A DNA stretch of 64,000 nucleotides from an uncultured Nitrospirales bacterium. Lineage in GTDB: Bacteria > Nitrospirota > Nitrospiria > Nitrospirales > NS-4. The position numbers and the translations under genes are program-made. How positions within the stretch are numbered: the stretch's first letter is position 1; each line of letters starts with the position of its first letter. Below are positions 5,142-36,049 of this stretch, piece by piece. The DNA is taken from assembly GCA_964384595.1 (NCBI GenBank), contig CAYLLY010000003.1, positions 198 to 64,197 on the forward strand, in the 5' to 3' direction. The notes below the pieces were generated by a model. That model did no database searches, was not told the origin of the DNA, and saw nothing but the letters and a program-made list of their open reading frames with translations.

Positions 5142-5180
5142 GGGGGGGCGCTGGTTCAAAGCGCCCCCCCGTTTCGTTTA
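5142..5180 (+). terminator. Rho-independent terminator after the giant MCO gene
   Basis: Perfect 11-bp GC-rich stem GGGGGGGCGCT (5142-5152) / AGCGCCCCCCC (5160-5170) with a 7-nt loop, followed by GTTTCGTTTAAAAA. Confidence 0.7.
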
Positions 5181-5222
5181 AAAAGAAGCGCGTTTCAGAT
5201 GTGTACTGCAGGGGAGGCCGGA

Positions 5223-7651: not shown

Positions 7652-7779
7652 CGGGACGCTCTCTCGACGTTGTATGTTGTGATCTAACAGTCCTGGGTTG
7701 CCGTGTCAAGGCACTGTCCTTGACCTTCTTCGGGATGGCGTGCTATGCCCGCGCTACGTTATGCGAGGGACGTAAGGAA

Positions 7780-9105: not shown

Positions 9106-9112
9106 AGAGATT

Positions 9113-13715: not shown

Positions 13716-15073
13716 TCATAGACGACGAGCCGGAGCTGCTCGAGAATTGCCGCCGCATCCTCTCAACGAGCGGCTATCGGTGTCTGACCGAAACCGATCC
13801 GGTCAAGGCCATTGGCGAGATCGAGCGGGAACACCCCGCCCTGATCCTGACGGACCTGAGGATGCCGACCATGAGCGGGATCGAAGTGGTGAAGGCGGCC
13901 AAGAAAATCGACCCGGATTCGGTGGTGATCTTGTTTACCGCCTTTGCGGCGGTGGAGACGGCCGTCGCCGCCATGAGGGAAGGGGCCTTCGACTACCTCT
14001 CGAAGCCGTTCTCGTCCGCCGATTTCGAGCTGGTCGTGCAGCGGGCCATGGAGCACTACAACATCCTCCATGAGAACAAGTATCTGCGCTCCCAGCTCCA
14101 GGAGCGTTTCTGCTTCGACAAGGTGATCGGCGTCAGCGAGGCGATGCAAGAGGTGTTCTCGCTTGTTCAGAAGGTCGCCAAAGCCCAGTCGAATGTCTTG
14201 ATTTACGGGGAAAGCGGGACGGGGAAGGAACTGATCGCGCGGACGATCCACGCGAACGGTCCCCGTGCGGCCAGGCCGTTCATCCCCGTCGACTGCGGCT
14301 CCCTGGCGGAGACGCTTCTGGAGTCCGAGCTCTTCGGGCACGAGAAAGGGGCCTTCACGGGCGCCCATGCGACCAAGCAGGGCTTGTTTGAGGTGGCCGA
14401 AGGGGGCACGATCTTTCTGGACGAAATCGGGGGGATGAGTCTGAACCTCCAGTCTCGCCTGCTCCGTGTCCTCCAGGAGCGCCAGGTCAGGCGAGTCGGC
14501 GGCACGAGATTTCTTGACGTGGATGTCCGGGTTATTTCGGCCTCGAACCGGGACCTGAAGGAAGCGATCAAGAACGGGACGTTCCGCGAAGACCTGTTTT
14601 ACCGTCTGAACGTGGTACAGATCACTCTGCCGCCCCTCCGTGGCAGAGCCGGGGATGTCCCGATCTTGGCGAACGCCTTTCTGCGACACTTTGCGGAAGC
14701 CAATAAGGAGACGGTCAAAACGCTTGACCCGCGCACGGTCCGCTGCCTTGAGGAATATCACTGGCCTGGCAACATCCGGGAACTGAGGAACGTGATCGAG
14801 CGCGCGGTCACCCTGGTGGATGGCCCGACGTTGTTGCCCGAGCACCTTCCCGAAGGCATCAGGTACGGGGCTCTCGAAGAATCCCGGGCCGAGGGGTCGA
14901 CGATGATGGCTGCGAAACAGGCCATCATCGGCGCCTTCGAGCGCAATTACTTGGTGGACCTGCTCAAGAGACACAAGGGACACATCGGGCACTCGGCCCA
15001 AGAGGCCGGGGTGGATCGGAAGACAGTCGAGCGCATGCTCAAGAAACACGGCCTCAAAGCCAACGGGAACTGA
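13697..15073 (+). CDS. Sigma-54-dependent response regulator (NtrC family enhancer-binding protein)
   Basis: Receiver ILIIDDEPELL...LILTDLRMP. AAA+ Walker A GESGTGKE. Sigma-54 contact motif GAFTGA. C-terminal HTH HSAQEAGVDRKTVERMLKKHGL. Overlaps the kinase gene by 19 nt. Confidence 0.92.
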   Translation: MDGKILIIDDEPELLENCRRILSTSGYRCLTETDPVKAIGEIEREHPALILTDLRMPTMSGIEVVKAAKKIDPDSVVILFTAFAAVETAVAAMREGAFDYLSKPFSSADFELVVQRAMEHYNILHENKYLRSQLQERFCFDKVIGVSEAMQEVFSLVQKVAKAQSNVLIYGESGTGKELIARTIHANGPRAARPFIPVDCGSLAETLLESELFGHEKGAFTGAHATKQGLFEVAEGGTIFLDEIGGMSLNLQSRLLRVLQERQVRRVGGTRFLDVDVRVISASNRDLKEAIKNGTFREDLFYRLNVVQITLPPLRGRAGDVPILANAFLRHFAEANKETVKTLDPRTVRCLEEYHWPGNIRELRNVIERAVTLVDGPTLLPEHLPEGIRYGALEESRAEGSTMMAAKQAIIGAFERNYLVDLLKRHKGHIGHSAQEAGVDRKTVERMLKKHGLKANGN

Positions 15074-22003: not shown

Positions 22004-22242
22004 GATGACCGGCTGGGACCGCGACTCCGCATTGGGACATTCTTTCCCGATTCGGCGAAATGACTTGAAAACACAAAGACTTGCCCCGGTTCGGCGGCGT
22101 TCGCAGCTGCTGAAGGCGTCTCATTGTACGGGGAGAAGAAGGCGCAACAGCCCTACGCAGGCATACAGGCCATCCGCCGGAATCCATCGTTTTTTCAAGT
22201 CAATAGGCCGCGCCACCCAGGAAGCTCCTTGGGGAAAGCTGA

Positions 22243-22258
22243 TGGCATCGCCATTGCT
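22243..22258 (+). promoter_or_regulatory. Sigma-54 (-24/-12) promoter candidate for the peroxidase/Rieske/Mo-enzyme array
   Basis: TGGCAT-CGCCA-TTGCT (consensus TGGCAC-N5-TTGCW) with exact GG-N10-GC spacing. It sits in a 383-bp non-coding gap, about 130 nt upstream of the 22387 start. Confidence 0.55.
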
Positions 22259-22386
22259 GTATCCGAAGAAAAGGGAAAAGGGAAACCTGCAAGCCTTGGT
22301 TCGAGAAAGGGGGGATGGTGCAAGGAGGTCGGAGCAAGGAGCAGGTTCGAGAAAAGGCGTAAGACAGCCTGAAAGGGGGGAGTGAA

Positions 22387-23589
22387 GTGGAGAGAAAAAA
22401 GAACAAACTATGGACATTCGTCATTTTGCTGTTCGGTGTGGCGATTGTGGCGGCTATGACGATGGCGTGGACCGCCTGGGCCGGAAACAACGAGGGCAAG
22501 ACCCCTCGTCCGCTCGCGGCCCTGCCGCCGGGCCCGCACCCGGGACCGGCGGACAACCCAACCACTCCGGAGAAGGCCAAGCTGGGGGAGTTGCTCTTCT
22601 TCGAGCAGCGGTTGTCGGGTGACGGGAGCACGCCCTGCTCCAAGTGCCATGATCCGAAGCAGGGATGGGGAACGACGGACGATCTCTCGATCGGCTATCC
22701 GGGGACGCAGCACTTCCGCAACTCGCACACAGTCCTCAACACCGGTCACCTGAAGAAGTATTTCTGGGAGGGCCGGGCCACGAGTCTTGAGGCCCAGGCC
22801 GGCGGCGCGGCGGGCGGGCAATCGGCCGGCAATCTCCAGTTCGACATAGGGGAGGCCCGGATGCGCCAGGTGCCGGAGTACCGGGAGATGTTCATGAAGG
22901 TCTTCGGCGAACTGCCGACCTGGGACAACGCGGCGCGGGCGATCGCGGCCTTCCAGCGGACGTTGAACTCGGATCCAAAGGTAGTCCCGTTCGACCGTTA
23001 CATGAACGGCGACAAGAGCGCCATGACCCCGCAGCAGGTCAAGGGCATGGAGCTCTTCAAAGGCAAGGCCAACTGCATCGCCTGCCACGATGGGATGATG
23101 TTCACCGACGAGGACCATCACAATCTCGGCCTGCCGCGCAACCCGGCCTTCGACGACGATCCGCTCAGGCAGATCGAGTTGCGGTTCCGCATGAAGTCGA
23201 ACGGCATCCAGAACTACAACGAAGTGGACGAGGATTTGGGACTCTACATGGCGACCCACCGGACGCAGGACATCGGGCGGTTTCGCACCGAGAAGCTGCG
23301 TGAGTCGAAGCACACGGCGCCGTACATGCACAACGGCGTCTTTTCCACGCTGGAGGAAGTCGTCGAGTTCTACGACAAGGGCGGCGAGGAGCCGGGCAAG
23401 TTCAAGGGCGTCAAGGACCCGCTCATGAAACCGCTGGAGCTGACGGCCGACGAGAAGAAGGCATTGGTGGCGTTCCTCGAGGCGCTCAGCAGCCCTGAGA
23501 CTCCGTTCAAGGACATCAACCCGGTCCTGCCGAAGGACGGGATCGTCACGGTGGACAAAAAAGTCGTGCCGCTGCCGGCCGGCAAGTAG
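22387..23589 (+). CDS. Di-haem cytochrome c peroxidase (CCP/MauG family)
   Basis: GTG start after gggggag. N-terminal TM/signal. Two CxxCH motifs (CSKCHD, CIACHDG). Conserved APYMHNGVFSTLEEVVEFY segment. Confidence 0.9.
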   Translation: MERKKNKLWTFVILLFGVAIVAAMTMAWTAWAGNNEGKTPRPLAALPPGPHPGPADNPTTPEKAKLGELLFFEQRLSGDGSTPCSKCHDPKQGWGTTDDLSIGYPGTQHFRNSHTVLNTGHLKKYFWEGRATSLEAQAGGAAGGQSAGNLQFDIGEARMRQVPEYREMFMKVFGELPTWDNAARAIAAFQRTLNSDPKVVPFDRYMNGDKSAMTPQQVKGMELFKGKANCIACHDGMMFTDEDHHNLGLPRNPAFDDDPLRQIELRFRMKSNGIQNYNEVDEDLGLYMATHRTQDIGRFRTEKLRESKHTAPYMHNGVFSTLEEVVEFYDKGGEEPGKFKGVKDPLMKPLELTADEKKALVAFLEALSSPETPFKDINPVLPKDGIVTVDKKVVPLPAGK

Positions 23590-23607
23590 GTAGGAGGTAC
23601 AACGACG

Positions 23608-24231
23608 ATGGACGAGAAGGAAACCAAAGACAGCAAACTGAAGATGCTCAAGGAATTGGGCGAGGATGTGGGATGCATGACGCGCCGCAAGCTGCTCTTC
23701 CTGGGCGGCTTGGCCACGGCCACGACGCTGCTCCCGCCGGCCGTTGCGGACACGCTTGCCGCGGCGCCGAAGGCCAAGCCCAAGGAGGCGTCGAAGAAAC
23801 CGACGCCGGTGGCGATGCAGAGCACGCATTACCCGAGAAAGAAAGTCGGCAAATTGAGCGCGTTGAAACAGGACGAGCCGGTGAAGATCTCCTATCCGGC
23901 CGAGCATCCGAATCACAAGGCGCTGCTCATCAAACTGGGCGTGCCGGCGCTCGGCGGCGTGGGTCCGCAGAAGGACGTGGTGGCGTTCAGCGCGCTGTGC
24001 GTCCACCAGGGCGGACCGCTCGAAGACCGGTACAACGCGAAGGAAAAGATCATGGGGCCGTGCGAATTCCATCTCTCAATGTACGATCTCACGAAGCACG
24101 GGATAATCACGAGCGCGTCGGCGACCCAGAACCTCCCGCAAGTTGTGCTGGAGGTGGAAGGGGACGACATTTACGCGGTAGGGATGCAGGGGCTCATCTA
24201 CGGGTTCCCGGACAACCTGCTGCCCGTCTAG
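23608..24231 (+). CDS. TAT-exported Rieske [2Fe-2S] small subunit, AioB/IdrB-like
   Basis: RBS aggagg (23591-23596). Twin-arginine TRRKLLFLGGLATA. Rieske boxes CVHQGG and CEFH (C-x-H ... C-x2-H). 18-nt gaps to both neighbouring genes. Confidence 0.88.
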   Translation: MDEKETKDSKLKMLKELGEDVGCMTRRKLLFLGGLATATTLLPPAVADTLAAAPKAKPKEASKKPTPVAMQSTHYPRKKVGKLSALKQDEPVKISYPAEHPNHKALLIKLGVPALGGVGPQKDVVAFSALCVHQGGPLEDRYNAKEKIMGPCEFHLSMYDLTKHGIITSASATQNLPQVVLEVEGDDIYAVGMQGLIYGFPDNLLPV

Positions 24232-24249
24232 ACGTAAGGGGGTGAAGAC

Positions 24250-26919
24250 ATGAGTAAGGCAGGAATCAACGTATCATTCGCCACCGTCGTTCCGGAGGAC
24301 AAGGTCCCGCTGCCTCCGCCCGACGCGAAGATCTATCCCACGGCCTGTGACTATTGCGTCGTGGGGTGCGCGTACCGGGCGATCGTCTGGCCGGTCGGCA
24401 AGGAGGGCGGCCCGAAAGCCAATCAGAACGCCTACGGCGTGGATTTCCCGATCACCGAGGCGCAGGCCGGGAACTGGGCCACGCCGGAGCAGCACACGAT
24501 CGTGCTGAAAGACGGGGAGCCGCACCACTGCATCGTAATTCCGGCGATCAGCGAGCGGGTGAACCGCTCGGGCAACCACAGCATCCGGGGCGGGAACATC
24601 GCCCAGAAGTGTTACAGCCCGGTGAAGCCGACGTCGGACCGGCTCCAGACGCCGCTGATGCGGGTCCGGAATGTGCTGGTACCCATCTCCTGGGAGGACG
24701 CGACCACCATCACGGCCGAGGTGGGGAAGTATGTGCTCGACAAGTACGACGAGCTGGCCTACGGGGCCCAGACCTTCTCGTACCAGTTCTGGGAGAACAC
24801 CTACGCGATTACCAAGCTCCTGCTGCAATCCATCGAGACGCCATGCTGGGCGCACCACGACAAGCCGTCGGCCCAGGGCGACGCGGTCGGAATGGAGGAT
24901 GCGGGGATCGACACGTTCGGCTCGGCCTATGAGGACTTCAAGCTGGCCGAGGTGATCTATATCTCAGGGGCCGACCCCTACGAGAACCAGACCATCATGT
25001 TTACCGAGTGGATCATGGACGGGGGCGCCAAGTTGATCAATGCGCTGCCCCGCAAGTCCACGGGGGCCGCGTACGGCGAGAAGAACGGCGGCCTGTTCCT
25101 CCAGGTCATTCCGGGCACGGACCCTGTGCTGAACAACGCGATGTGCCGGGTCATCATCGAGAACGGCTGGGAGGACAAGGAGTTCATCGCCAAGTGGTGC
25201 GCCGACGACGAGGAGATTGACTGGGGCATGGGTCGCGGCGTCCGCAACACGCCCTGGCAGTGGCGGACGACGCGGTGGGGCGTGTCCTTCGCGAAGTGGA
25301 AGGACTGGCTCCTGAAGGACGAGTTCACGACGCTGGAATATGCGGAGAAGACGACGGGGGTTCCGCGCGCCAAGATCGTGAAGGCGGCGGAGATGCTGAC
25401 CGGCGGCGGGAAGGGCCCGCGCCCGAAGGCGTCCTTCCTCCATGAGAAAGGCAACTACTGGTCCAATAACTACCTGAGCTCGACCTCGTTCTGCAACCTG
25501 GGGCTCATCTGCGGCGCCGGAACGAAACCCGGGCAGCGGATCAGCCGGTGCGGCGGTCACCAGCGCGGTGGGATGGGCGCGGCGCCGTATCCCATCACGA
25601 AGACGCCGCAGCGGTTCGGGCGGATCGGCCGGCTGGCGATGGATGTGGACCGGTGGATCTTGAGCAACAACCTTCGGTTCCTGTGGGTGATCGGGGCCCA
25701 GAAGCTCGAGAACTCCTGCGCGAATGGCGCGCTGCACGACTATTTCCGGCAGCATGTGACCCTGTCGCCTCATCAGATTGACAGTACGGATCCGAAGCGG
25801 GCGATCGAAGTGCTCAAAGCGCGGGTGGACAACCAGGATATCGTGTGCGTCAACTCGGAAATCTATCTGCGGACGTTCGGCAACCAGTACGCGGACATCG
25901 TGATGCCGGCGGCGACCTGGGGCGAAGAGGACTTCACTCGCGCGCAAGGCGAGCGGGTGATGCGGATCTATTCCAAGTTCTACGACCCGCCGGGCGACGC
26001 GAAGCCCGATTGGTGGATCATCTCCCAGGTGGCGAAGAAAATGGGGTTCGAGGGGTACAACTGGAAGTCCTCCCAAGATGTCTTCAAGGAGGCGGCGCGC
26101 TTCTCGCGCGGCGGGATTCTGGAGTACGCGCCGTTGTTGCCCTACGCCAAGCTCAAAGGGAAGGAGCCCTATGAGTTGCTGCGGGAGCGGGGCGCCATGG
26201 GGTACCAGACGCCGCTGCGGCTGCACGACGGCGAGCTGATCGAGACCAAGCGGACCAACGACGAAACGGCGGCGCCCATGATCGAGACCCCGCAGGGGAT
26301 CTCGACCATGCAGAAGCGGCTCTCGGGATTTACCCGGCCGTCCGGCAAGGCGCTCCTGCACAAGGTGGACTGGAAGCTCTACAAGGACTTCCACGAGGCC
26401 ATCAGCCCCAAGAAGGAGAAGGGCGAGCTGTGGGTTACCAACGGGCGGGTCAACGAGATCTGGCAGTCGGTCTTCGACGACATGCGGAAACCGTACATCA
26501 TGCAGCGGTATCCGATGAACTTCGTCGAGATCCACCCGGAGGACGCGAAGGCGCGGGGGATCGAGAACGGCGACATCGTGTCCATGGAGAATGACGAGGT
26601 CTTTGTCCAGACCGGCGGCTTCTACTTCCTGCGGGATTCGGACGCGCTGTTCACGAGCCTGATGAAGAACGGCCACATCAAGACGACCAAGGGGTCGGCG
26701 ACGGCCATGGCGATCGTGACGGATGCCGTGCAGCCGGGGCTGGCATACCAGTACTTCCTGTGGCCGGGCGCGAGCGGCAACGCGCTGGCGCACAATGTGC
26801 CGGATCCGATCACCAATGCCCCGCGCTACAAGACGGGGAAGGCGGTGATCAAGAAGATCGGCACGCTGCCGGATCGCCTGAAGGCGCGCATCACGTGGGC
26901 GAACAAGAACGCGGTATAG
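24250..26919 (+). CDS. Molybdopterin (bis-MGD) oxidoreductase large subunit of the arsenite-oxidase (AioA) / iodate-reductase (IdrA) family
   Basis: 889 aa. N-terminal C-x2-C-x3-C (CDYCVVGCAY), as in the AioA 3Fe-4S site. No signal peptide, consistent with TAT hitch-hiking on the Rieske partner. MGD-binding-type segments (YISGADPYENQ, CGGHQRGG). Adjacent to the Rieske subunit. Confidence 0.9.
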   Translation: MSKAGINVSFATVVPEDKVPLPPPDAKIYPTACDYCVVGCAYRAIVWPVGKEGGPKANQNAYGVDFPITEAQAGNWATPEQHTIVLKDGEPHHCIVIPAISERVNRSGNHSIRGGNIAQKCYSPVKPTSDRLQTPLMRVRNVLVPISWEDATTITAEVGKYVLDKYDELAYGAQTFSYQFWENTYAITKLLLQSIETPCWAHHDKPSAQGDAVGMEDAGIDTFGSAYEDFKLAEVIYISGADPYENQTIMFTEWIMDGGAKLINALPRKSTGAAYGEKNGGLFLQVIPGTDPVLNNAMCRVIIENGWEDKEFIAKWCADDEEIDWGMGRGVRNTPWQWRTTRWGVSFAKWKDWLLKDEFTTLEYAEKTTGVPRAKIVKAAEMLTGGGKGPRPKASFLHEKGNYWSNNYLSSTSFCNLGLICGAGTKPGQRISRCGGHQRGGMGAAPYPITKTPQRFGRIGRLAMDVDRWILSNNLRFLWVIGAQKLENSCANGALHDYFRQHVTLSPHQIDSTDPKRAIEVLKARVDNQDIVCVNSEIYLRTFGNQYADIVMPAATWGEEDFTRAQGERVMRIYSKFYDPPGDAKPDWWIISQVAKKMGFEGYNWKSSQDVFKEAARFSRGGILEYAPLLPYAKLKGKEPYELLRERGAMGYQTPLRLHDGELIETKRTNDETAAPMIETPQGISTMQKRLSGFTRPSGKALLHKVDWKLYKDFHEAISPKKEKGELWVTNGRVNEIWQSVFDDMRKPYIMQRYPMNFVEIHPEDAKARGIENGDIVSMENDEVFVQTGGFYFLRDSDALFTSLMKNGHIKTTKGSATAMAIVTDAVQPGLAYQYFLWPGASGNALAHNVPDPITNAPRYKTGKAVIKKIGTLPDRLKARITWANKNAV

Positions 26920-26931
26920 GGGGAACGAATC

Positions 26932-26960
26932 TGGGGGACAGATTTGAAATCTGTCCCCCA
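26932..26960 (+). other. Perfect intergenic stem-loop (14-bp arms)
   Basis: TGGGGGACAGATTT-G-AAATCTGTCCCCCA, 13 nt after the Mo-subunit stop. No following T-tract. Confidence 0.8.
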
Positions 26961-26983
26961 TCAAATCAGGGAGGATTAGAGCG

Positions 26984-27730
26984 ATGGGCAAGTATAGGTT
27001 TGTAATGGCGGCCGTGGCGGCGATGGGGCTCGTGGCGGCGCCGGCGGCATTCGGATATGAGGAAGCGGCTGTGAGCGACGGGGGCGCCGTCACCGGCAAG
27101 ATCAGCTTCAAGGGGAAGGTCCCTGAGCCACAGCATTTCCTGGTGCAGAAGAACCCTGACGTCTGCGGGAAGGAGCGCGATTTTCCGTTCGTGCGGGTGA
27201 AAGACGGAGCGCTCCAGAACGTGGTGGTGGTCATCGAAGGCATTGAAAAGGGGAAACCCTTCACGCACGCGCCGACCGAGTTTATCGGGAAGGAATGCGC
27301 GTTTCTTCCGTATGTGTCGTTCGTGACCAAGAAGGGCGTGGACGGGTGGCCGGTGTTCAAGATCGAGAACACGGACACCGTCATTCACAATCCCCACACC
27401 TATGCGATCGCGGGGGCGACGCGGGTGACGTTATTTAACGTCGCATTGCCGGAGAAAGGCTCCAAGCTGGAGAAGGAGCTGAAGAACAGGAAAGGCAACG
27501 TCATCAAGCTGGAGTGCGACCAGCACGACTTCATGCACAGTTGGACGCGGGTGGTGGAGCATCCCTACTTCGCGGTGGTGGACGACGGGGGCGCCTTCAA
27601 GATCGACGGCGTGCCGGCAGGCAAGTACAAGCTCGTGGCGTGGCATCCGATCCTGGGCGAGCAGACGGCGGAAGTAACCGTCGCGGCCAAGGGATCGGCG
27701 AAGGCGGATTTCACGTTCGCGGGAAAGTAA
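26984..27730 (+). CDS. Secreted cupredoxin-like protein with putative type-1 Cu site and C-terminal beta-sandwich domain (paralog of 5223-6173)
   Basis: Signal peptide MAAVAAMGLVAAPAAFG. Candidate Cu ligands NTDTVIH and CDQHDFM (C-x2-H-x2-M). C-terminus GGAFKIDGVPAGKYKLVAWHP...AKGSAKADFTF. Confidence 0.85.
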   Translation: MGKYRFVMAAVAAMGLVAAPAAFGYEEAAVSDGGAVTGKISFKGKVPEPQHFLVQKNPDVCGKERDFPFVRVKDGALQNVVVVIEGIEKGKPFTHAPTEFIGKECAFLPYVSFVTKKGVDGWPVFKIENTDTVIHNPHTYAIAGATRVTLFNVALPEKGSKLEKELKNRKGNVIKLECDQHDFMHSWTRVVEHPYFAVVDDGGAFKIDGVPAGKYKLVAWHPILGEQTAEVTVAAKGSAKADFTFAGK

Positions 27731-27748
27731 AGAAAGGGGTGAAAGACA

Positions 27749-28918
27749 ATGAGTAGGCGAGGGAAAAATCTGATGGGGTTGGCGGCCTTCGTGGTCGTGT
27801 CGGGGCTTGCCTTGGTCGTGGCGCCGAGCGTCAATGCGGCCGAGACGGATCTGGGCCCTCTGCCGGCCTTGAAGGTGGATGAGAAGAAGGCGGAGCTGGG
27901 CAAGCTGCTGTTCTTCGACAAGCGAATGTCGGGCGATGCGGCGAGGTCTTGCAATGAGTGCCACAATCCCAAGAAAGGGTACGGAGACGATAGGGCGCTC
28001 TCGGAAGGGTATCCGGGGACCCTGCATTGGCGGAATGCCCAGACGCTGCTGAACGCGGCGCACCAGAAGGACCTCCACTGGCCGGGCTCGCAGGGCGACC
28101 TGGATACGTCCATCCGGACCCATGTGACCGGATGGATCCTCCTGAACGACGACGGGCGCGCCCTGGAAGAGCGCATGATCCTGGTTCCGGAGTATCGGAA
28201 CCGGTTCACGGAAGTGTACAAGATCAAACGGCATCCGATGTTCGGGCAGATCATGGGGGCGCTCTCGGAGTTCGTGAAGACGCTGGTGTCGGACCCGAAG
28301 AAAGTGCCGTTCGACCGGTACCTGGGCGGGGACCAATCGGCCTTGACGCCTCAACAAGTGAAAGGCCTGGAGCTGTTCAAGGGCAAGGCCAATTGCGCCG
28401 CCTGTCACAACGGCCCGCTGCTGAGCGACAAGGGCTACCACAACACGGGCGTTCCGACGAGCCCGGAGTTGTTGACGAATCCGCAGGTGCAGATCGCCGC
28501 TCGGCTCGAGAACATGACGATCGGCGTGTCGGGCTACGACACGATGATCGAGGACCTCGGCCGGTACATGTACACGAAGAACAAGAAGGACATCCGTAAG
28601 TTCCGGACACCGTCCTTGCGGGAGGCGAAGTACACGGCCCCGTACATGCATAACGGGACGCTCGCGACTCTGGCGGACGTGGTCGAGTTCTACAATGCGG
28701 GCGGCGGAAATGATGCGAATAAGGATGCGGCTCTCAAGCCGCTGGGGCTGACCGCGGAAGAGAAGGCGGCCCTGGTTGCCTTCCTGCAGAGCCTCAGCAG
28801 CGACACGTCGCCGTACGCGGATGCCCAGCCGGCGAAGTACGGCGAAGAGGGGTATCCGTATCAGGCGTTGAAGATCAATGAAGGCAAGCCCTGGACGAAG
28901 AAGGACCCGCGGGACTAA
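27749..28918 (+). CDS. Di-haem cytochrome c peroxidase (CCP/MauG family), second copy
   Basis: Signal peptide. CNECHNP and CAACHNG. APYMHNGTLATLADVVEFY. Confidence 0.9.
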   Translation: MSRRGKNLMGLAAFVVVSGLALVVAPSVNAAETDLGPLPALKVDEKKAELGKLLFFDKRMSGDAARSCNECHNPKKGYGDDRALSEGYPGTLHWRNAQTLLNAAHQKDLHWPGSQGDLDTSIRTHVTGWILLNDDGRALEERMILVPEYRNRFTEVYKIKRHPMFGQIMGALSEFVKTLVSDPKKVPFDRYLGGDQSALTPQQVKGLELFKGKANCAACHNGPLLSDKGYHNTGVPTSPELLTNPQVQIAARLENMTIGVSGYDTMIEDLGRYMYTKNKKDIRKFRTPSLREAKYTAPYMHNGTLATLADVVEFYNAGGGNDANKDAALKPLGLTAEEKAALVAFLQSLSSDTSPYADAQPAKYGEEGYPYQALKINEGKPWTKKDPRD

Positions 28919-28951: not shown

Positions 28952-29419
28952 ATGAGGCGACGGGCGGTCTGTGCGAGCGTAGCGATGGTAGGGCTGGTTC
29001 TGGGTGCGGCGATCGCTTACGGGGATGAGCCCCTCCCTCCGGTGCCGCCGGAATACAACAACCATAGCATGCCGAAAGGCTGGTGGACGGACCCGAAAGT
29101 GATCGCGGCCGGCAAGAAGATCTACACGGAAGGAATGCCCGACGAGGAGGGGAAGATCCAGAAGTGCGCCAAGTGCCATGGAGAAGATGGGAACCCCAAG
29201 CTGCGCGGCGCCAGGGACTTCCGGGCCGAGACGAAGATCAACCGGTATTCGGACAGTTACTTCTTCTGGCGGGTGTCCGAAGGCGTTCCCAAGACCAAGA
29301 TGAAGGGGTGGAAAGAGCGGCTGACGGATGAACAACGCTGGCAGGTGATCGCGTATGTCCATACCTTTTCGCACGGCGGAAAGCCGGAAGAGCACAAACA
29401 CAAGGAGGTCGGGAAGTGA
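28952..29419 (+). CDS. Mono-haem c-type cytochrome, periplasmic
   Basis: Signal peptide. Single CxxCH (CAKCHGEDG). Downstream YFFWRVSEG...MKGW with a Met candidate ligand. Confidence 0.85.
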   Translation: MRRRAVCASVAMVGLVLGAAIAYGDEPLPPVPPEYNNHSMPKGWWTDPKVIAAGKKIYTEGMPDEEGKIQKCAKCHGEDGNPKLRGARDFRAETKINRYSDSYFFWRVSEGVPKTKMKGWKERLTDEQRWQVIAYVHTFSHGGKPEEHKHKEVGK

Positions 29420-29493: not shown

Positions 29494-29871
29494 ATGCCGA
29501 ACGGCGGTCGTTTGGCGAGGGTGGCATTCATGCTCGTGAGTCTCATGATTACGATCCTGACCGGGGTGGCCGTTCCGGCTGAAATCCATGAGGTGACCTT
29601 GCTGGACCGGGCGCCGTTCTACAGTTCCGGTCAGACGGTCAAGGTGACCGTCGGCGACACGGTCAGGTGGAAGAACCCGATGACGAAGGACGGCGCGACG
29701 CATACGGTGACGCAGATGGGATGCCTGACGGGCGATGCGTGCGAGTTCGATTCAGGGGTGTTGGCGCCGGGCCAGACATTCACCCACACGTTCACTGTGG
29801 CGGGCACGTTCACGTACCGCTGTCGCCTGCATGCGCTGATGGAGGGGGTCATCGTCGTCAATGGTCAATGA
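29494..29871 (+). CDS. Small blue-copper protein (plastocyanin/amicyanin-like cupredoxin)
   Basis: GDTVRWKNP...GATHTV and YRCRLHALMEG (C-x2-H-x2-M). Alternative start at ATG29530, which has a gaggg RBS. Confidence 0.82.
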   Translation: MPNGGRLARVAFMLVSLMITILTGVAVPAEIHEVTLLDRAPFYSSGQTVKVTVGDTVRWKNPMTKDGATHTVTQMGCLTGDACEFDSGVLAPGQTFTHTFTVAGTFTYRCRLHALMEGVIVVNGQ

Positions 29872-29905
29872 GAGGGAGTTGCCCGAGGAAAGGGGAGAGT
29901 TCGAG

Positions 29906-30451
29906 ATGAAGCGTACGTGGCTCAAGCGACCGAGGAAAGCGCTGGTGCTCGGACTGGCGGCGGCTCTTCTGGGCGGTCTGGTTGTGACGGCCGCCGCCCA
30001 GGTCTCAAGCATGACAGGGCAGGTGATGGATTTCGACAAGTCGGCGGGAACGCTGGAGGTCGAGCTCCAACGGGGGGACTTCGCCACGCTTTACCTGGAG
30101 AAGAATTCGCACTGGATCTTCCAGAAGGTGGATATCGGGGATCGGGTCCATGCGACGGTGGAGAAGCAGAACAACCGGTTGCTGGTCAAGGAGATCACCT
30201 TGCAGATCGGTCCCGGCGTGCAGATCGACTCGGTCCAGGGGGTCGTGACCAAAGTGAACCGCCGGGCCCATTCGCTCGAGGTCAAGACGGCGGCGGACAA
30301 GGAAGAGGTGCTCTACCTCGACCTGGACGCGCTGTCGGTGCTCGGGAAAGTGGCCGTGGGCGATCGGATCGAGGCCCGCGTGGAGACCGTGATCGAGGCG
30401 GGTGGTCCCAAAAAAGTGATTCGGGTCATCGTTGTGGGGAGCGGACCGTGA
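29906..30451 (+). CDS. Secreted hypothetical protein with two GDR(V/I)-type beta-rich repeats
   Basis: ATG29906 after aggggag. Signal LVLGLAAALLGGLVVTAAAQ. Repeats IGDRVHATVEKQNNRLLVKEITL and VGDRIEARVETVIEAGGPKKVIRVIVV. Confidence 0.68.
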   Translation: MKRTWLKRPRKALVLGLAAALLGGLVVTAAAQVSSMTGQVMDFDKSAGTLEVELQRGDFATLYLEKNSHWIFQKVDIGDRVHATVEKQNNRLLVKEITLQIGPGVQIDSVQGVVTKVNRRAHSLEVKTAADKEEVLYLDLDALSVLGKVAVGDRIEARVETVIEAGGPKKVIRVIVVGSGP

Positions 30452-30465
30452 CGGGAGGTGGCGCG

Positions 30466-30882
30466 ATGAAAGAGTTGACCCATCCGTCGCAGAGCGTGGT
30501 GGTGGCGGTCGTCGAGGATCTGCAACGGATCGCGCGGAGACTGATGACGATCTCCGAGGACGGGGTGGCCAGGGGAATGACCCATACCAACGGCGTCGAC
30601 TGCCTGATCGGGTTGGTTGATCGGATGGATTTTGCCTGCGCGTTGGCCGAGACCAAGAGCGGCGGTCAAACCGAGCCCGCAGAGACGGCCGGCGACCCCA
30701 CGGTGGGTGACCTGCCCGGACTCTGCCAAGACGTGCGCTGCAAGGCCGCCGACCTCGACCGGTTGAATCGGGACGGCGTGGGCGTGGCCTCTGAGATCGG
30801 AGAACTTGCGGCCGAGTTGATGCGCATCGAAGGTGAGCTTCGACGGGGGCTGGCTTCCGCAAGCGAGCCGCCGGCCGCCTGA
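30466..30882 (+). CDS. Hypothetical protein (no signal peptide)
   Basis: ATG30466 after gggagg (30453-30458). 138 aa. This is the in-frame tail of the longer track ORF 29917-30882, whose upstream part overlaps the better-supported 29906-30451 gene. Confidence 0.5.
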   Translation: MKELTHPSQSVVVAVVEDLQRIARRLMTISEDGVARGMTHTNGVDCLIGLVDRMDFACALAETKSGGQTEPAETAGDPTVGDLPGLCQDVRCKAADLDRLNRDGVGVASEIGELAAELMRIEGELRRGLASASEPPAA

Positions 30883-31076
30883 TCGTGAGAATCGGCGGGT
30901 GTCTGTTGAACTTGGGTCCGCGGGAACCACACGGACTGGCCTCCGGTTGCCCTGCGGATCTGCTGGTAGGGCCGGGCTTCACCCTCGCTGAAGGAGCGAG
31001 TACGCCCGGCTCCTACCGGCCATATTCTGAACGGCAGGCGATGCCGTCGGAGAGGAGCCAGAAGGGGAGAAGGGGA

Positions 31077-32918
31077 ATGGATGATCGCGTGAGAGCCGGA
31101 ACGAGGAACTTCCTCCCAATCGTGTGGATGTCGGCGCTCTTGCTCGGCGCCGTGATCGCGCTGTGGCCGCCGGGGGCGGCGCTGGCCCAGGAGACTCCGG
31201 CGGGACCAGGCGTGGAGTATCGGGACATCCCGTTCATGGGGAGCCGGAACCTCATCTGGATCGTCGCGCAGCTCCATCTCCTGTTGGCAGGGTTCGTGCT
31301 GGGCGTGCCGATCTTCGCGTGGGTGTGCGAGATCGTGGGGGTCAGAACGAAGGACCCGCGCTACGACAAGCTGGCCAAGGAGTTCACCAAGCTGCTCACC
31401 TCGTCCTACGCCACGACCGCGCTGTTCGGCGGCATCTTGTTGTTCCTGCTGATCGGCTCCTACCCGAAGCTGATGTCCTATCTCGCGGACGTCTTCTATC
31501 CGTCGTTCCTCGTCTATTGCGCGCTGTTCCTGCTGGAGACCGCGACCCTCTACCTCTACTGGTACGGCTGGGATTCGATGCAGGGGAGCAAGAAAGGCAT
31601 GCATCTGTTCCTCGGGTTCCTCCTCAACGTCTTCGCGTTCTTCATCATGATCGTGCCGAACTCCTGGGCGACCTTCCAGGCCAGCCCTGTCGTGATCGCG
31701 GAAGGCGATATGTGGGCGAAGGCCTGGGCGGCGACGTGGAACCCGACCTGGTGGCCGGTGAACATCCACCGCCTGATCGCGAACGTGGTGCTGGGCGGCT
31801 TCATCTGCGGGGCCTACGCCGGGCTCAAATACCTGATGGCTCAGAGCCCGGAAGAACGGGTGCACTACGACTGGATGGGGTACGTCGGGAATTTCATCGG
31901 CGTGTTCGGGATGCTGCCCCTCCCGTTCGCGGGCTACTGGCTGATGCGGGAGATCTACCAGTACAACCAGCAGATGGGCATCACCCTCATGGGCGGCTTC
32001 CTCTCCTGGCTGTTCATCCTGCAGGCCATGTTGATCGGCATCCTGTTCCTGGGGGCGAACTATTATTTCTGGCTCGGCATCATGTATCGCATTCCGGGTT
32101 CCGAAGCCAAGTACCGCAAGCCGATCCTGACGATGCTGGTCATCCTGCTCGTGTGCCTGGGGGTCTGGATGACCCCGCACTCCCTGGTCGCCAGCCTGGA
32201 AGAGGCCCGCAAGATGGGCGGGACTCATCACCCCTTGCTGGGCGTCTTGGGCGTGATGTCCGCGAAGATGACCGTGGCGAATCTCATGATCCTGGTGACG
32301 TTCATGAGCTTCGTCATGTACTGGCGGGCCGGCAAACAGGAGACCGCGCGTTGGGCAAAGGCCGCCAAGGTGGGCCAGTGGGCCATCCTGGGGATCGCGG
32401 TGATCGTGGTGCTGGTGCTGGGGGTGTGGGGCTACTTCGTGCCGGCCATCACGCGGATCAACTACTTTTCCACGACGCAGGTGCTGGTGGTGCTGTTTGT
32501 CTTGTTGACGATCACGCCCCTGACCGGGCTCTTACTCAAGAGCGCGAAGACGACCACGGAGATGATCTGGGGCGTCATGCCGGCGCGGGCGGGCTACGCG
32601 CTCGTCTTGAACGCCATCATGGTCATCCTCCTCATGACTCTGATGGGATACGCGCGCTCGTCGTCCAGGGTTCACTGGCATGTCTATGGGGTCATACAGG
32701 ATACGTCCCAGTACGCCTATTCCCCGGCGCTGGGCTACGCGGCCGCGTTGATGTCGCTATGCACGTTCCTCTTTTGCCTGCTGGTGGCGTTCATCTTCTG
32801 GGTGGCCTCGCTGGGTGGGGAGAAGAAAGGCCCTGTGACGGTGATGGCGGCTGAGAGAGAGAAGGAAGTGGTGACGCCGCCGGCCGGCGCGGCGCCGGTT
32901 ACAGCGGTTCGGGAATAG
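31077..32918 (+). CDS. Cytochrome bd-like oxidase, CydA-related subunit with extra C-terminal TM helices (no CydB partner in the locus)
   Basis: ATG31077 after gaaggggagaagggg. CydA-like N-terminus (NLIWIVAQLHLLLAGFVLGVPIFAW) and NPTWWPVNIHRLIANVVLGG. About 13-14 hydrophobic segments by eye, versus 9 in canonical CydA. The canonical GRQPW string is absent; SRVHWHVYG sits near the corresponding C-terminal region. Confidence 0.8.
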   Translation: MDDRVRAGTRNFLPIVWMSALLLGAVIALWPPGAALAQETPAGPGVEYRDIPFMGSRNLIWIVAQLHLLLAGFVLGVPIFAWVCEIVGVRTKDPRYDKLAKEFTKLLTSSYATTALFGGILLFLLIGSYPKLMSYLADVFYPSFLVYCALFLLETATLYLYWYGWDSMQGSKKGMHLFLGFLLNVFAFFIMIVPNSWATFQASPVVIAEGDMWAKAWAATWNPTWWPVNIHRLIANVVLGGFICGAYAGLKYLMAQSPEERVHYDWMGYVGNFIGVFGMLPLPFAGYWLMREIYQYNQQMGITLMGGFLSWLFILQAMLIGILFLGANYYFWLGIMYRIPGSEAKYRKPILTMLVILLVCLGVWMTPHSLVASLEEARKMGGTHHPLLGVLGVMSAKMTVANLMILVTFMSFVMYWRAGKQETARWAKAAKVGQWAILGIAVIVVLVLGVWGYFVPAITRINYFSTTQVLVVLFVLLTITPLTGLLLKSAKTTTEMIWGVMPARAGYALVLNAIMVILLMTLMGYARSSSRVHWHVYGVIQDTSQYAYSPALGYAAALMSLCTFLFCLLVAFIFWVASLGGEKKGPVTVMAAEREKEVVTPPAGAAPVTAVRE

Positions 32919-32935
32919 AAACGGAGATTCTTGTT

Positions 32936-33532
32936 ATGACGGAGACTCAGATCCTGCAAGCCCTCGGGTTGAGCATCATAGGATTGGGGGGCGCCGTGTT
33001 CCTGTTCGTGAATGCCCGTTTTCTCCGCGTGACGGCGTTCGTCGCCATCGTGCTGGGCACGTTTTCCCTCGTGGCGCTGGGCGTGCCGCAGATGGCCTCC
33101 ATGCCCCCCGTCGTGGAGAAGTTCGACCTGGCCGCGATCAAGGACAAGAGAGAGTTGGCGGGGATCGGGCAGAAAATCTTCTTCGGCGCGGGGCAGTGCG
33201 CGCTGTGCCACACCATCGGGAGCAGTGAGGGCCGATGTCCGGACTTGAAAGGCGTCGGCGCCAAGCTCACGCGCGAGTTCATTTTTGAGAGCCTCACACA
33301 ACCGCAAGCGTTCACCTACATGGATTACGAGCATGTGGGACCAGCCAAGGGGTTTCCGGCTAAGATGCCCTACATTAATAAAAAACCGATCGGCCTGAAC
33401 AAGAACGAGATACTGGCCGTGATCGCGTTTCTCCAGAACATGTCCGGTGAGGAGGTCACGGTGGATCTGGCCGAGCTCGAGGCCCCGAAGGATGTGGCGG
33501 CGGGACCAGGTGATAAGGCGAAGCCCTTGTGA
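32936..33532 (+). CDS. Membrane-anchored mono-haem cytochrome c
   Basis: Two N-terminal hydrophobic helices, then CALCHTIG (CxxCH). Confidence 0.82.
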   Translation: MTETQILQALGLSIIGLGGAVFLFVNARFLRVTAFVAIVLGTFSLVALGVPQMASMPPVVEKFDLAAIKDKRELAGIGQKIFFGAGQCALCHTIGSSEGRCPDLKGVGAKLTREFIFESLTQPQAFTYMDYEHVGPAKGFPAKMPYINKKPIGLNKNEILAVIAFLQNMSGEEVTVDLAELEAPKDVAAGPGDKAKPL

Positions 33533-33554
33533 TGGGAAACCGAGGAGAGACGGT

Positions 33555-34277
33555 ATGAAGCGTTCAGCATTGGCGTTAAAAGGCCTCATCCTGCTGGCGG
33601 CCGTTTTTGCGTTCCTGCAATACGGCCTGCCGTTCTTCACCGCGCCCCTGCCCATGAGCCTGATCTGGCTCTATTTGTTCACGACCGCCGTGGGGGTCAT
33701 CGTGTTTGGGACGCTCAGCGGGGAATCCACGGAAGCCTTCTTAGGGCCGATCTTTCGATTTTTGAGCGGAGAGGGCATGAACGGAGTGGCCAAGCATGCG
33801 CGGCTCTTGATCCTCGTGCTCCTGCCCCTTTTGGTGGGCTGGCAGACGTACAGCGGGCTGGTCCCGAGCACGGAGCCGCCCGCCGAGAACCGCACGATCC
33901 ATCCGGCGCCGCCCGGGGAGTTCGTCGGATTGGCCAATCCCGTGCCGAATACGCCGGAGAACGTGATGATGGGGAAGGGCTTGTACGCCGCCTTTTGTGC
34001 GCCGTGCCATGGGGCCAAATTCAACGGCAACGGCCCCGCCGCCGACGGCTTCAACCCGCCACCGGCCAATTTCGCCGATCCCGGCACCATCGCCATGCTC
34101 CAGGAGTCGTACCTCTTCTGGCGTATCAAGAAGGGTGGGGTGGGGCTGTCGGTCGAGGGCCATCCGTGGAAATCGGCCATGCCGCGCTGGGAAGTGGAGC
34201 TGCCGGACGATTGGATATGGAAGATCATCATGGCGGAATACGAAGGGGCCGGGCAAAAGCCCCGGACGTGGGAGTAA
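33555..34277 (+). CDS. Membrane-anchored mono-haem cytochrome c
   Basis: ATG33555 after gaggagag. Three hydrophobic helices, then CAPCHGAKFNG. YLFWRIKKGG...MPRW resembles the 28952 cytochrome. Confidence 0.82.
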   Translation: MKRSALALKGLILLAAVFAFLQYGLPFFTAPLPMSLIWLYLFTTAVGVIVFGTLSGESTEAFLGPIFRFLSGEGMNGVAKHARLLILVLLPLLVGWQTYSGLVPSTEPPAENRTIHPAPPGEFVGLANPVPNTPENVMMGKGLYAAFCAPCHGAKFNGNGPAADGFNPPPANFADPGTIAMLQESYLFWRIKKGGVGLSVEGHPWKSAMPRWEVELPDDWIWKIIMAEYEGAGQKPRTWE

Positions 34278-34280
34278 GCG

Positions 34281-35228
34281 ATGGCTGTGTGGTTCCGATA
34301 TCTGGTTGCCGGATGTACGATTGCGGCGGTGGGGTTTCTGAGCGCGCCGCCGGCGCACTCCCAGGAGAGCGTGGTGGTCCGCGTGAAGCTGGTCCAGGGA
34401 GAGGTGCCGACCGACCCCCTGGCGCTGGTCTGGGGCACGGTTCCGGCGGCGGAGTTTCCGCTGTCTCCGCAGGTCCACTGGCAGAAACGCATCGGGTCGG
34501 TGACGGCCAAGTCCGTCAAGGTCCGGGGGGTTCACAACAACAAGCAGATTGCGTTCATGGTGGAGTACGCCGATCCGGCCCAGGACCCCGCCGACGCCGC
34601 CGCGCTGGAGTTCATGGTGGGGGACAAGAAGGCTCATTTCGCGCACGGGCAGCCCATGGTTCAGGTGGAAGGCGGGCCGGTCAACATCTGGTACTGGCGG
34701 AACGACGTCCCGGGAGCCGCGGACATGTCCGCGCAGGGCTTCGGGACGCTGGCAAAGCAGGCCCAGCAGGACGTCCGGGCGAAGGGCGTCTGGAAGGACG
34801 AGAAGACCAAGATCACGTTCAAGGAGCGCAAGCAGAGCCTGCGGAAAGACCCCCAGGGGGAATTGGTGAAAGACCCCAAAACCGGGGACCCCGTGGTCGA
34901 TGAAGAGACAAAGGTGGTCGAGCAGGACGTGAGCGGCGTGTGGCGCGTCGTTTTCACCCGCGCGCTGACCACGACCGACAAGGAGGACGTCCAGATCCAG
35001 ACGGGGACGTTCCCCAACGTCGCCTTCGCAGTGTGGGACGGCAAGAAGCTGGAGAGCGGCGATCTGAAGGAGTCCGGCTCGCAAAAGGCCATCAGTTCCT
35101 GGTGGTTCTTCAACGCGGAGCCGCCGCCCGACTATTCGATCTATCTGTACGGCTTGGTGGCGGTGGTGCTCGCGGGTGGTGTCGAATTCATCATCATCCG
35201 CAAGACCAGAAAGGGGCAGCAGACATGA
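34281..35228 (+). CDS. EB_dh/DOMON-like (ethylbenzene-dehydrogenase gamma / NxrC-like) putative haem-b protein with C-terminal TM anchor
   Basis: Signal peptide. Pattern VKVRGVHNNKQIAFMVEYADPAQD...ALEFMVGD...VNIWYWRND, typical of the EB_dh fold as I remember it. C-terminal helix IYLYGLVAVVLAGGVEFIII. The family call is by pattern only. Confidence 0.6.
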   Translation: MAVWFRYLVAGCTIAAVGFLSAPPAHSQESVVVRVKLVQGEVPTDPLALVWGTVPAAEFPLSPQVHWQKRIGSVTAKSVKVRGVHNNKQIAFMVEYADPAQDPADAAALEFMVGDKKAHFAHGQPMVQVEGGPVNIWYWRNDVPGAADMSAQGFGTLAKQAQQDVRAKGVWKDEKTKITFKERKQSLRKDPQGELVKDPKTGDPVVDEETKVVEQDVSGVWRVVFTRALTTTDKEDVQIQTGTFPNVAFAVWDGKKLESGDLKESGSQKAISSWWFFNAEPPPDYSIYLYGLVAVVLAGGVEFIIIRKTRKGQQT

Positions 35229-36049
35229 GGGCACAGCACGTTGTGGGAATCGCCGCCGCCGCGGCCGTGGCGGCCACAGTCGGACTCGCGGGCTGCGCGC
35301 TGTTCGAGAGCGAGCAGGTCGCCACGGGGCGCAAGCTCTTCGAGTACTATTGCCTGCACTGTCACGGCGAAAAAGGAATGGGGAACGGGTTCAACGCGAA
35401 GCATCTCGACCCCAAACCGCGGGATCTCACGGACAAAGATGAAGAGTTCATGGTGAAGATGTCCAACGAGGAGATCTATGAGGTGATTTCCCGCGATATG
35501 ATGTCCCAGGAGGAGTTCGACGAGAAATACGGCGAAGACACGGACAAGCTGTTCACGCCGCCGAACATGCCCTCGTTCAAGCACACCCTCTCCGATGCGG
35601 AGCGCTGGTCGCTGGTCGCGTTCGTGCGGACGTTGCACAAGAACGCCGCGCCCAGGGTGGAGATTCCGGCCCAGGCCGCCAAGGAGCGGCCCAAGTTCCC
35701 GCCCGCGCCCAAGCCGACGCTTGCCTCCGCGCCCGCGGACCTGGAGAAGCTGGCCGCGAAGGGAAAGACCCTCTATGAGGATAAATACGGGTGCCATGCC
35801 TGCCACGCGATCGGCGCGAAGGGGGGGATCGTCGGCCCCGAACTCGACCGGGCGGGGTTCCGCTTGAACGCCGCGTGGGTGTACCGGTGGATCAAGTATC
35901 CGCAGGCCATGAAGCCGCACACCAAGATGCCGAACCTGGGCGTGTCGGACGACGACGCGCTGGCGATCACGGCCCATCTCGGGACCCTGAAGGCGGAGCC
36001 TCCGGCCGAGCCGTCCGCCGCGCCCACGAAACAGGCCTCGGCGCAGTGA
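35225..36049 (+). CDS. Di-haem c-type cytochrome lipoprotein
   Basis: ATG35225 overlaps the previous stop (ATGA). Lipobox GLAGC. Two CxxCH motifs (CLHCHGEKG, CHACHAIG). Confidence 0.85.
   Translation: MRAQHVVGIAAAAAVAATVGLAGCALFESEQVATGRKLFEYYCLHCHGEKGMGNGFNAKHLDPKPRDLTDKDEEFMVKMSNEEIYEVISRDMMSQEEFDEKYGEDTDKLFTPPNMPSFKHTLSDAERWSLVAFVRTLHKNAAPRVEIPAQAAKERPKFPPAPKPTLASAPADLEKLAAKGKTLYEDKYGCHACHAIGAKGGIVGPELDRAGFRLNAAWVYRWIKYPQAMKPHTKMPNLGVSDDDALAITAHLGTLKAEPPAEPSAAPTKQASAQ

Follow-up and report, generated by a model that had tools for sequence, protein, structure and literature searches.

The cluster and its components

The gene cluster described here is contained in a stretch of 64,000 nucleotides (nt) from an uncultured Nitrospirales bacterium (assembly GCA_964384595.1, contig CAYLLY010000003.1, positions 198 to 64,197), which is referred to as the window. 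It comprises the genes for a molybdoenzyme related to arsenite oxidase (Aio) and dissimilatory iodate reductase (Idr), for two di-haem proteins of the cytochrome c peroxidase (CCP) type, for a cupredoxin designated X and for a small cytochrome c. The window holds the same gene set as the widespread [X]-idrP2-idrP1-idrB-idrA cluster, in a different order.

The first five open reading frames (ORFs) listed below are located on the + strand and are separated by gaps of 18, 18, 64 and 18 nt. An earlier note on this DNA, made from the sequence alone, had named the same five genes, and its coordinates and gaps agree exactly with the ORF list. The domains assigned there, including that of the cupredoxin, were confirmed by family scans with Pfam and NCBIfam and, for the fourth protein, by an AlphaFold model. 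In the JGI gene calls, the fourth and the fifth gene start slightly further downstream (products of 241 and 381 amino acids, aa), so that the gap sizes of 64 and 18 nt in front of them vary with the start codon. No terminator-like sites were found inside the cluster on the + strand.

22387..23589, + strand: idrP1-type di-haem MauG/BthA-like peroxidase, 400 aa; signal peptide, two CxxCH motifs, Tyr at the Met-ligand position of bacterial CCPs (bCCPs)
23608..24231, + strand: idrB, Rieske [2Fe-2S] small subunit exported by twin-arginine translocation (Tat); Rieske/TIGR02694, Tat motif
24250..26919, + strand: idrA-type catalytic subunit, 889 aa; [3Fe-4S] motif C-x2-C-x3-C and domains for molybdenum bis-pyranopterin guanine dinucleotide (Mo-bisPGD)
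26984..27730, + strand: X, secreted two-domain blue-copper protein, 248 aa; predicted cupredoxin domain and C-terminal CarboxypepD_reg-like beta-sandwich
27749..28918, + strand: idrP2-type di-haem MauG/BthA-like peroxidase, 389 aa; signal peptide, two CxxCH motifs, Tyr at the Met-ligand position
28952..29419, + strand: monohaem cytochrome c, 155 aa; conserved 3' of idrP2 in the sub-clade of the window

In the family scan, the products of the first and the fifth gene matched CCP_MauG with E 7e-41 and E 2e-35, respectively, each with two CxxCH motifs and a signal peptide. The gene for the Rieske small subunit is located immediately 5' of the large-subunit gene, with a gap of 18 nt; its product matched TIGR02694 'arsenite_ox_S' with 122 bits against a cut-off of 96, and contains the Tat motif TRRKLLF and the cluster ligands CVH...CEFH. 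The large subunit contains Rieske_3 (3Fe-4S), Molybdopterin and Molydop_binding domains with the motif C33-x2-C36-x3-C40, and matched TIGR02693 'arsenite_ox_L' with 415 bits against a cut-off of 359. These two NCBIfam matches do not discriminate Aio from Idr, since the IdrAB proteins of Azonexus are named by the same models.

Placement of the large subunit

A tblastn search of plasmids with the large subunit gave a bimodal result, with 42-50% identity to three proteobacterial proteins, from Azonexus hydrophilus, Thiothrix subterranea and Vibrio sp. THAF190c, and 26-30% identity to bona fide AioA of Thermus, NT-26, Nitrobacter, Ralstonia and others. To the AioA proteins of solved structures, the identity is about 30%. 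The window IdrA is 48% identical to the IdrA of the plasmid cluster of Azonexus hydrophilus NCP973, an isolated iodate respirer (PMC13455634), and the window IdrB is 44% identical to the Azonexus IdrB. An identity of 52% was found to a protein of Ca. Methylomirabilis bin48 (Ca. M. iodofontis, locus L062), the cluster of which has been published as idrP2P1BA (PMC10989891). Iodate reduction has been validated by expression in E. coli for clusters from metagenome-assembled genomes (MAGs) of Alphaproteobacteria and SAR324 (PMC13455634). Reyes-Umana et al. included proteins from Rokubacteria, NC10 and Planctomycetaceae in the IdrA clade, using linked CCP genes as the criterion to separate Idr from Aio (PMC8692401); in the window, two cluster-linked di-haem CCP genes are present.

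Among the GTDB species representatives, at least 597 loci encoding relatives were identified, the best 80 of which were used. These are 49-67% identical to the window protein and originate from Dehalococcoidia, Planctomycetota, Methylomirabilota/Rokubacteria, Nitrospinota, Nitrospirota, KSB1, Bacillota and Proteobacteria. A tree was constructed by the neighbour-joining (NJ) method only, from 89 sequences including five AioA, over 881 columns and with 300 bootstraps; the IdrA proteins of Pseudomonas SCT and Denitromonas IR-12 are not part of it, and neither is the Halorubrum-type 'unknown clade', which was placed beside IdrA by Reyes-Umana et al. (PMC8692401).

Three groupings were obtained in this tree with a bootstrap value of 100% each: the five AioA are split from all Idr-like sequences, the window protein forms a clade with those of L005 (Nitrospirota), L006 (Nitrospinota NP1026), L011 and L018 (both Nitrospiraceae), and the other 79 Idr-like sequences form one group. 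The clade of the window is therefore sister to all other sampled Idr-like proteins. This bears out the distinct branch which the earlier note had suspected, and a nesting inside bona fide AioA or IdrA, named there as the observation that would speak against it, was not seen. The further suggestion of an uncharacterised branch of the Aio/Idr family holds for the five-member sub-clade from Nitrospirota and Nitrospinota, and has to be given up for the wider Idr-like clade, because clusters of Rokubacteria, NC10 and Planctomycetes have already been published as idrABP1P2 (PMC8692401, PMC10989891).

An insertion of the form W..G near residue 341, conserved in the 79 other sequences, is absent from the window clade and from AioA, a rare character which agrees with the sister placement of the window clade. 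Idr signature positions were defined as those at least 95% conserved in the 79 sequences and absent from AioA (n=57); the window protein has 38 of them, and 28 of the 57 are common to all five members of the clade.

In A. faecalis AioA, the residues His195, Glu203, Arg419 and His423 are said (by Ellis et al. in 2001) to surround the Mo site. The corresponding residues of the window protein are H203, D211, R433 and H437. The Asp in place of Glu203 is found in the window clade and in 73 of the 79 other Idr-like sequences, and Glu in five of five AioA. The large subunit of the window consequently neither belongs to the AioA clade nor contains Glu203.

In comparison to AioAB (Alcaligenes faecalis, 1G8K; NT-26, 4AAY), the window enzyme shares the fold family, the [3Fe-4S] motif, the Rieske partner and the equivalents of His195, Arg419 and His423. 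However, in addition to the exchange of Glu203 and the identity of 26-30%, its large subunit is about 45-65 residues longer and falls outside of the AioA clade, and CCP genes are present.

Gene order in related loci

Synteny was analysed by tblastn of all window proteins against the related loci. The commonest order is [X]-CCPb-CCPa-IdrB-IdrA, which corresponds to [X]-idrP2-idrP1-idrB-idrA. The plasmid locus of Azonexus consists of a kinase, a sigma-54 regulator, two CCPs, the small subunit, the large subunit, a cytochrome c and moaA, and the locus of Vibrio sp. THAF190c shows the order CCP, CCP, B, A. True Aio loci contain no CCPs and are surrounded by ars and aio genes; in the window, neither ars nor aioX genes were seen among the ORFs scanned.

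The idrB-proximal CCP best matched the first CCP of the window (the idrP1 type) in every surveyed locus, and the idrB-distal CCP best matched the second one (the idrP2 type) in every surveyed locus having both. To the Azonexus proteins, the first CCP of the window is 53% identical (idrB-adjacent CCP) and the second 46% identical (distal CCP). The view of the earlier note that the gene content is of the Idr type rather than aioBA is in agreement with this, the two di-haem genes being orthologues of idrP1 and idrP2. Both CCPs belong to cluster-specific orthogroups, which by orthology speaks against independent housekeeping CCPs, the second observation that the note had considered damaging.

The conserved order idrP2-idrP1-idrB-idrA is not found in the window. 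Its order, P1-B-A-X-P2-cytochrome c, was rightly regarded as unusual from the beginning, and among the surveyed loci occurs elsewhere only in the clade-mates L005, L006, L011 and L018, where the L005 contig ends after X. A separate rearrangement, B-A...X-P2-P1, was identified in L048.

The type-1 copper protein had been described in the note as an extra gene inserted into the cluster. This was not confirmed: of the 56 canonical loci with sufficient sequence on the 5' side, 27 have an X homologue no more than 1.5 kb upstream of the P2-type gene, among them loci of Betaproteobacteria, Rokubacteria, Planctomycetota, KSB1 and Calditrichaceae. Wherever X and the P2-type gene were both seen (the 27 canonical loci, L006, L011, L018 and L048), X is directly 5' of the latter. 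Since X regularly adjoins idrP2 elsewhere, it is no insertion; the X-P2 pair was relocated together downstream of idrA. What is new in the locus is thus that an X-P2-cytochrome c unit has moved from a position upstream of the cluster to one behind idrA. In the Nitrospinota MAG NP1026 (L006, 13550-15229), the P2 orthologue and the cytochrome c form one tri-haem ORF of 559 aa with CCP_MauG and Cytochrom_C domains, and this fusion therefore provides a Rosetta-stone link between P2 and the cytochrome c.

When compared to the IdrABP1P2 systems of Pseudomonas sp. SCT, Denitromonas iodatirespirans IR-12, Azoarcus DN11 and Azonexus hydrophilus NCP973, the window shares the Tat-exported Rieske subunit, the AioA-like large subunit with Mo-bisPGD and [3Fe-4S], the P1 and P2 orthologues, a small cytochrome c in the cluster and a sigma-54-type regulator nearby. 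It differs in its gene order, which in the known systems is P2-P1-B-A-cytochrome c, and in the presence of X, a gene which the Azonexus and Vibrio clusters lack and about half of the Idr-like loci have. Further, its large subunit belongs to the separate sister sub-clade, and the host is Nitrospirales-related.

The sister loci do not share the genes upstream of the cluster, for a porin, a BFD-like 2Fe-2S protein and an ORF of 278 aa, and these were not counted as part of the system. A protein with an FGE-sulfatase domain recurs near the cluster, in the window (9044-9982), in L006 (19402-20331) and in L018 (16401-17300).

The di-haem IdrP proteins

In the HMMER alignment, the Tyr of the sequence VVEFY in the second CCP of the window aligns with Met258 of the Nitrosomonas europaea CCP (1IQC), the axial ligand of the electron-transfer haem. 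Tyr occupies this column in 141 of 143 IdrP-type proteins, among which are those of Azonexus, Vibrio and M. iodofontis. MauG and BthA are characterised by a His/Tyr haem. Because Tyr replaces the canonical Met ligand, the IdrP-type proteins were classified as MauG/BthA-like, and the His/Met-ligated electron-transfer haem of canonical bCCPs is not present in the window IdrP. The best NCBIfam matches of the two window CCPs are MbnH and MauG, with scores below the cut-offs (212 and 183 against 363 for MbnH, 202 and 163 against 444 for MauG). Compared to MauG, BthA and MbnH, IdrP has two c-type haems and Tyr at the axial Met position of bCCPs, but over the whole sequence, canonical bCCPs (E 1e-34) are closer to it than MauG is (E 1e-12). 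In the literature searched, idrP1 and MauG were not found mentioned together.

The cupredoxin X

By sequence, X gave only a weak C-terminal match to CarboxypepD_reg/fn3_3; it is not detected by Pfam Copper-bind, and no match was obtained with the NCBIfam models, the presence of an MbnP model in this library being unconfirmed. The AlphaFold model of X (pLDDT 91.4) has its best matches in the PDB with amicyanin, plastocyanin, the type-1 copper domain of NirK and other cupredoxins, and the Foldseek probability for the amicyanin/plastocyanin-type cupredoxin fold is 1.0. An alignment of 36 homologues with 39-70% identity revealed the invariant residues C61, C105, H135, H138, C178, D179, H181 and M184. 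The ligand loop is C178-x2-H181-x2-M184, with H135 as the fourth ligand residue. Judged by its predicted fold and its H/C/H/M ligand signature, X is a type-1 copper cupredoxin, and a disulphide between C61 and C105 is probable. An MbnP-like identity was considered for X and rejected on the lack of an NCBIfam match and the presence of the classical type-1 copper site. X shares the C-x2-H-x2-M loop spacing with amicyanin, but differs from the amicyanin/plastocyanin type in other respects: it is 248 aa in length, its N-terminus is extended, two further Cys residues are invariant, and a CarboxypepD_reg-like beta-sandwich is fused to it.

Proteins of the X family, which has no name so far, are not confined to Idr clusters. 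When a profile was run against 1.84 billion representatives, E<=1e-30 was reached by about 1,300 clusters (50% identity), a number inflated by some giant multi-repeat proteins which match with the C-terminal domain only. X appears to be a general-purpose copper redox partner of the periplasm, often encoded beside MauG-like haem enzymes.

The window contains a paralogue of X at 5070-6173 (367 aa, 33% identical, E 6e-40, loop CGFHAYM), and directly 5' of it, at 110-5026, a multicopper oxidase of 1,638 aa with a weak MnxG-like match. In L092, an X homologue is followed by a multicopper oxidase of 1,622 aa and two CCP_MauG genes. The X homologues in L090 and L091 are flanked by HEAT-repeat, Usp/PCP_red and radical-SAM genes; the one in L091 is accompanied by bd-like/EB_dh modules, and the one in L090 is located after a canonical idr cluster. 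Genes for HEAT-repeat, Usp+PCP_red and radical-SAM proteins are also present in the window, scattered at 7720-9105, 57533-59080 and 59097-60050.

Regulation and neighbouring modules

Three further features of the window were considered together with the cluster:

11307..15073, + strand: sensor histidine kinase and sigma-54-dependent response regulator; possible regulator pair
22243..22258, + strand: candidate sigma-54 (-24/-12) promoter TGGCATcgccaTTGCT, 129 nt 5' of idrP1
29494..36049, + strand: bd-like 'TO_1'-type module, adjacent on the same strand; possibly tied to Idr

The site TGGCATcgccaTTGCT has the pattern TGGCAT-N5-TTGCT and is located inside a stretch of 383 nt in which the JGI caller predicts no gene; about 0.016 sigma-54-like sites are expected per 350 nt of the window. 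An ORF of 126 aa directly before idrP1 (22005-22385) gave no family match, is not called by JGI and is purine-rich. It is probably no gene, and the region a non-coding leader with a sigma-54-like site. The response regulator of the window is 40-41% identical to the regulators beside the idr clusters of Azonexus and Thiothrix, and 35% identical to AioR. These observations are suggestive of a sigma-54 control of the cluster. The strict -24/-12 motif was found upstream of only one of 62 related clusters, so that the site in the window is a local candidate and not a trait of the family.

A terminal-oxidase module had been noted to follow the cluster, and a bd-like module is indeed located there. 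The region 29494-36049 codes for an amicyanin-like cupredoxin, an ORF or ORFs without assignment, a cytochrome bd-like subunit (30885-32918), two cytochromes c, an EB_dh haem-b protein and a di-haem cytochrome c. In this arrangement, idrP2 is separated from the bd-like module (30885-36049) by the cytochrome c gene, a cupredoxin gene and one or two unassigned ORFs. The module matches the 'TO_1' bd-like complex described for Nitrospirota (PMC9040806; PMC12342949). The same module is located directly 3' of idrA and on the same strand in loci of Phycisphaerae (L017, 12794-21595) and Rokubacteria (L019, 12826-17932). Since it was not found within 10 kb of the cluster in the closest relatives L006, L011 and L018, its adjacency is no trait of the clade, and from gene positions a functional tie to Idr is possible.

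Proposed function

Taken together, the locus is interpreted as an operon for a periplasmic reductase of the Idr type whose oxyanion substrate is most likely iodate, and which represents a new lineage with a new gene arrangement, an interpretation to which we assign a probability of roughly 60% on the basis of sequence comparison. The following mechanism is proposed by homology with published Idr models. Electrons from the quinol pool would be passed to periplasmic carriers, and from these through IdrB, with its Rieske [2Fe-2S] cluster, and the [3Fe-4S] centre of IdrA to Mo-bisPGD, at which iodate or a closely similar oxyanion would be reduced to hypoiodous acid. The two Tyr-ligated MauG/BthA-like di-haem enzymes might clear H2O2 or another oxidising by-product, and IdrP2 would receive its electrons from X and the 155-aa cytochrome c, as donors dedicated to it. 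The latter roles are proposed because of the invariant adjacency and the one gene fusion.

Several observations weigh against this interpretation. The phylogeny was obtained by NJ only and without the Halorubrum-type 'unknown clade' neighbouring IdrA. Within it, the five-sequence sub-clade appears as sister to everything else Idr-like instead of being nested, it resembles AioA in lacking the W..G insertion near residue 341, and the window IdrA lacks 19 of the 57 signature positions, about a third. The strict sigma-54 motif is no common feature of the family, the adjacent bd-like oxidase module would also fit an oxidative enzyme, and of the window ORFs scanned, none was seen to be Cld-like.

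It is unlikely, in our estimation, that the enzyme of the sub-clade has kept this architecture but uses another substrate or works in the oxidative direction. It would then oxidise a reduced compound, such as iodide/HOI, arsenite or some other precursor of an oxyanion, with the electrons passing via the Rieske protein, cytochrome c and cupredoxins to the bd-like 'TO_1' oxidase. The sister position of the clade and the deviating signature positions are consistent with this, as is the arrangement of the cluster, which runs on the same strand into the cytochrome c, the cupredoxin and the bd-like/EB_dh module, and the position of that module directly 3' of idrA in the Phycisphaerae and Rokubacteria loci. 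Azurin or cytochrome c are the natural electron acceptors of the homologous AioAB, some of which use a cupredoxin as redox partner, and the NCBIfam name is 'arsenate reductase (azurin)'. However, a bd-like module is lacking within 10 kb in L006, L011 and L018, and the window keeps all of the Idr accessory genes (P1, P2, X, cytochrome c) as well as the Idr-type Asp211. A terminal oxidase could also be useful to a reductase, since in the model of Yamazaki, as far as it is summarised in later papers, O2 is released from HIO. That the locus codes for an ordinary arsenite oxidase AioBA, with the peroxidases as unrelated housekeeping genes, is highly improbable. Both subunits score above the cut-offs of TIGR02693 and TIGR02694, and homologues are labelled 'arsenite oxidase' in databases, but the same models name the Azonexus IdrAB. 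Moreover, the large subunit shares no more than 26-30% identity with AioA, which branches off as a clade of its own at 100% bootstrap, and it has Asp instead of Glu203. Both CCPs belong to orthogroups specific to the cluster, and the ars and aioX genes of true Aio loci were not seen among the window ORFs scanned.

A different role for X and IdrP2, that of a MauG/MbnH-like maturation pair in which the di-haem enzyme oxidises a residue of X or IdrAB, is considered quite unlikely. Here, the Tyr at the axial Met position in 141 of 143 IdrP-type proteins would correspond to that of MauG, and the best NCBIfam matches are the MbnH and MauG families. In mbnP-mbnH, the gene for the copper protein is followed by that for the di-haem enzyme, an order which X and idrP2 resemble, and X homologues adjoin CCP_MauG genes also away from Idr (L092). 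The scores, however, are far below the equivalog cut-offs (212 against 363 for MbnH, 202 against 444 for MauG), X itself matched no NCBIfam model, and its ligand set for type-1 copper is already complete and would need no modified residue. About half of the Idr clusters keep P2 without X, and Tyr-ligated di-haem enzymes can be peroxidases, as is the case for BthA.

Significance

In oceans and aquifers, Idr clusters serve as markers by which microbial iodate reduction is traced, and the family is now extended to a Nitrospirales-related lineage. In the comparative-genomics literature searched on Nitrospirales, Nitrospinota and Nitrospirota/Nitrospinota, no mention of arsenite oxidase, iodate or idrA was found. 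It is a speculative idea, with the odds well against it, that the sub-clade (including the MAGs NP1026 and NP85) equips lithotrophs of the Nitrospirota and Nitrospinota with an iodine-linked respiratory enzyme, by iodate respiration or by the reverse reaction. Within 10 kb, the flanks of L006 and L018 contain no genes for NXR or other lithotrophy. If true, iodate respiration could support nitrite or metal oxidation without O2, or an oxidation of iodide/HOI feeding the bd-like oxidase would be a candidate biological route to iodate. Iodate has been proposed as an oxidant for anaerobic nitrite oxidation in oxygen-deficient zones; this debated link would become testable if members of the clade were located in nitrite oxidisers of oxygen-deficient waters.

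Of specialist interest are the two family-wide observations, the conserved cupredoxin partner and the Tyr-ligated 'peroxidases'. The two-domain blue-copper gene tied to idrP2 constitutes a fifth conserved gene in about half of the Idr-like clusters, which is omitted by the four-gene definition 'idrABP1P2', and the Tyr-ligated MauG/BthA-like nature of the 'peroxidases' bears on the question which oxidant the IdrP enzymes handle.

Further observations

Downstream of the bd-like module, the window codes for a NirK-like two-domain multicopper oxidase (36618-37751) and for a molybdoenzyme of the sulfite oxidase family (41116-42327, Oxidored_molyb and Mo-co_dimer). With these two enzymes and three cupredoxin-type genes, this is a very copper-rich periplasmic redox region. 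For the ResB protein of the window, all named homologues belong to Nitrospirales/Nitrospira, with identities of 55-59%, from which the host was placed as related to Nitrospirales.

In four MAGs of Dehalococcoidia (L041, L042, L049 and L077), only one CCP gene is located directly 5' of the idrA-like gene, and no Rieske gene was identified by tblastn; these loci may represent a reduced Idr variant. An Idr-like P1-B-A cluster was also found in a record labelled as Methanobacteriota archaeon (L007), with 55% identity to the window protein, and its archaeal placement could result from mis-binning or lateral transfer.

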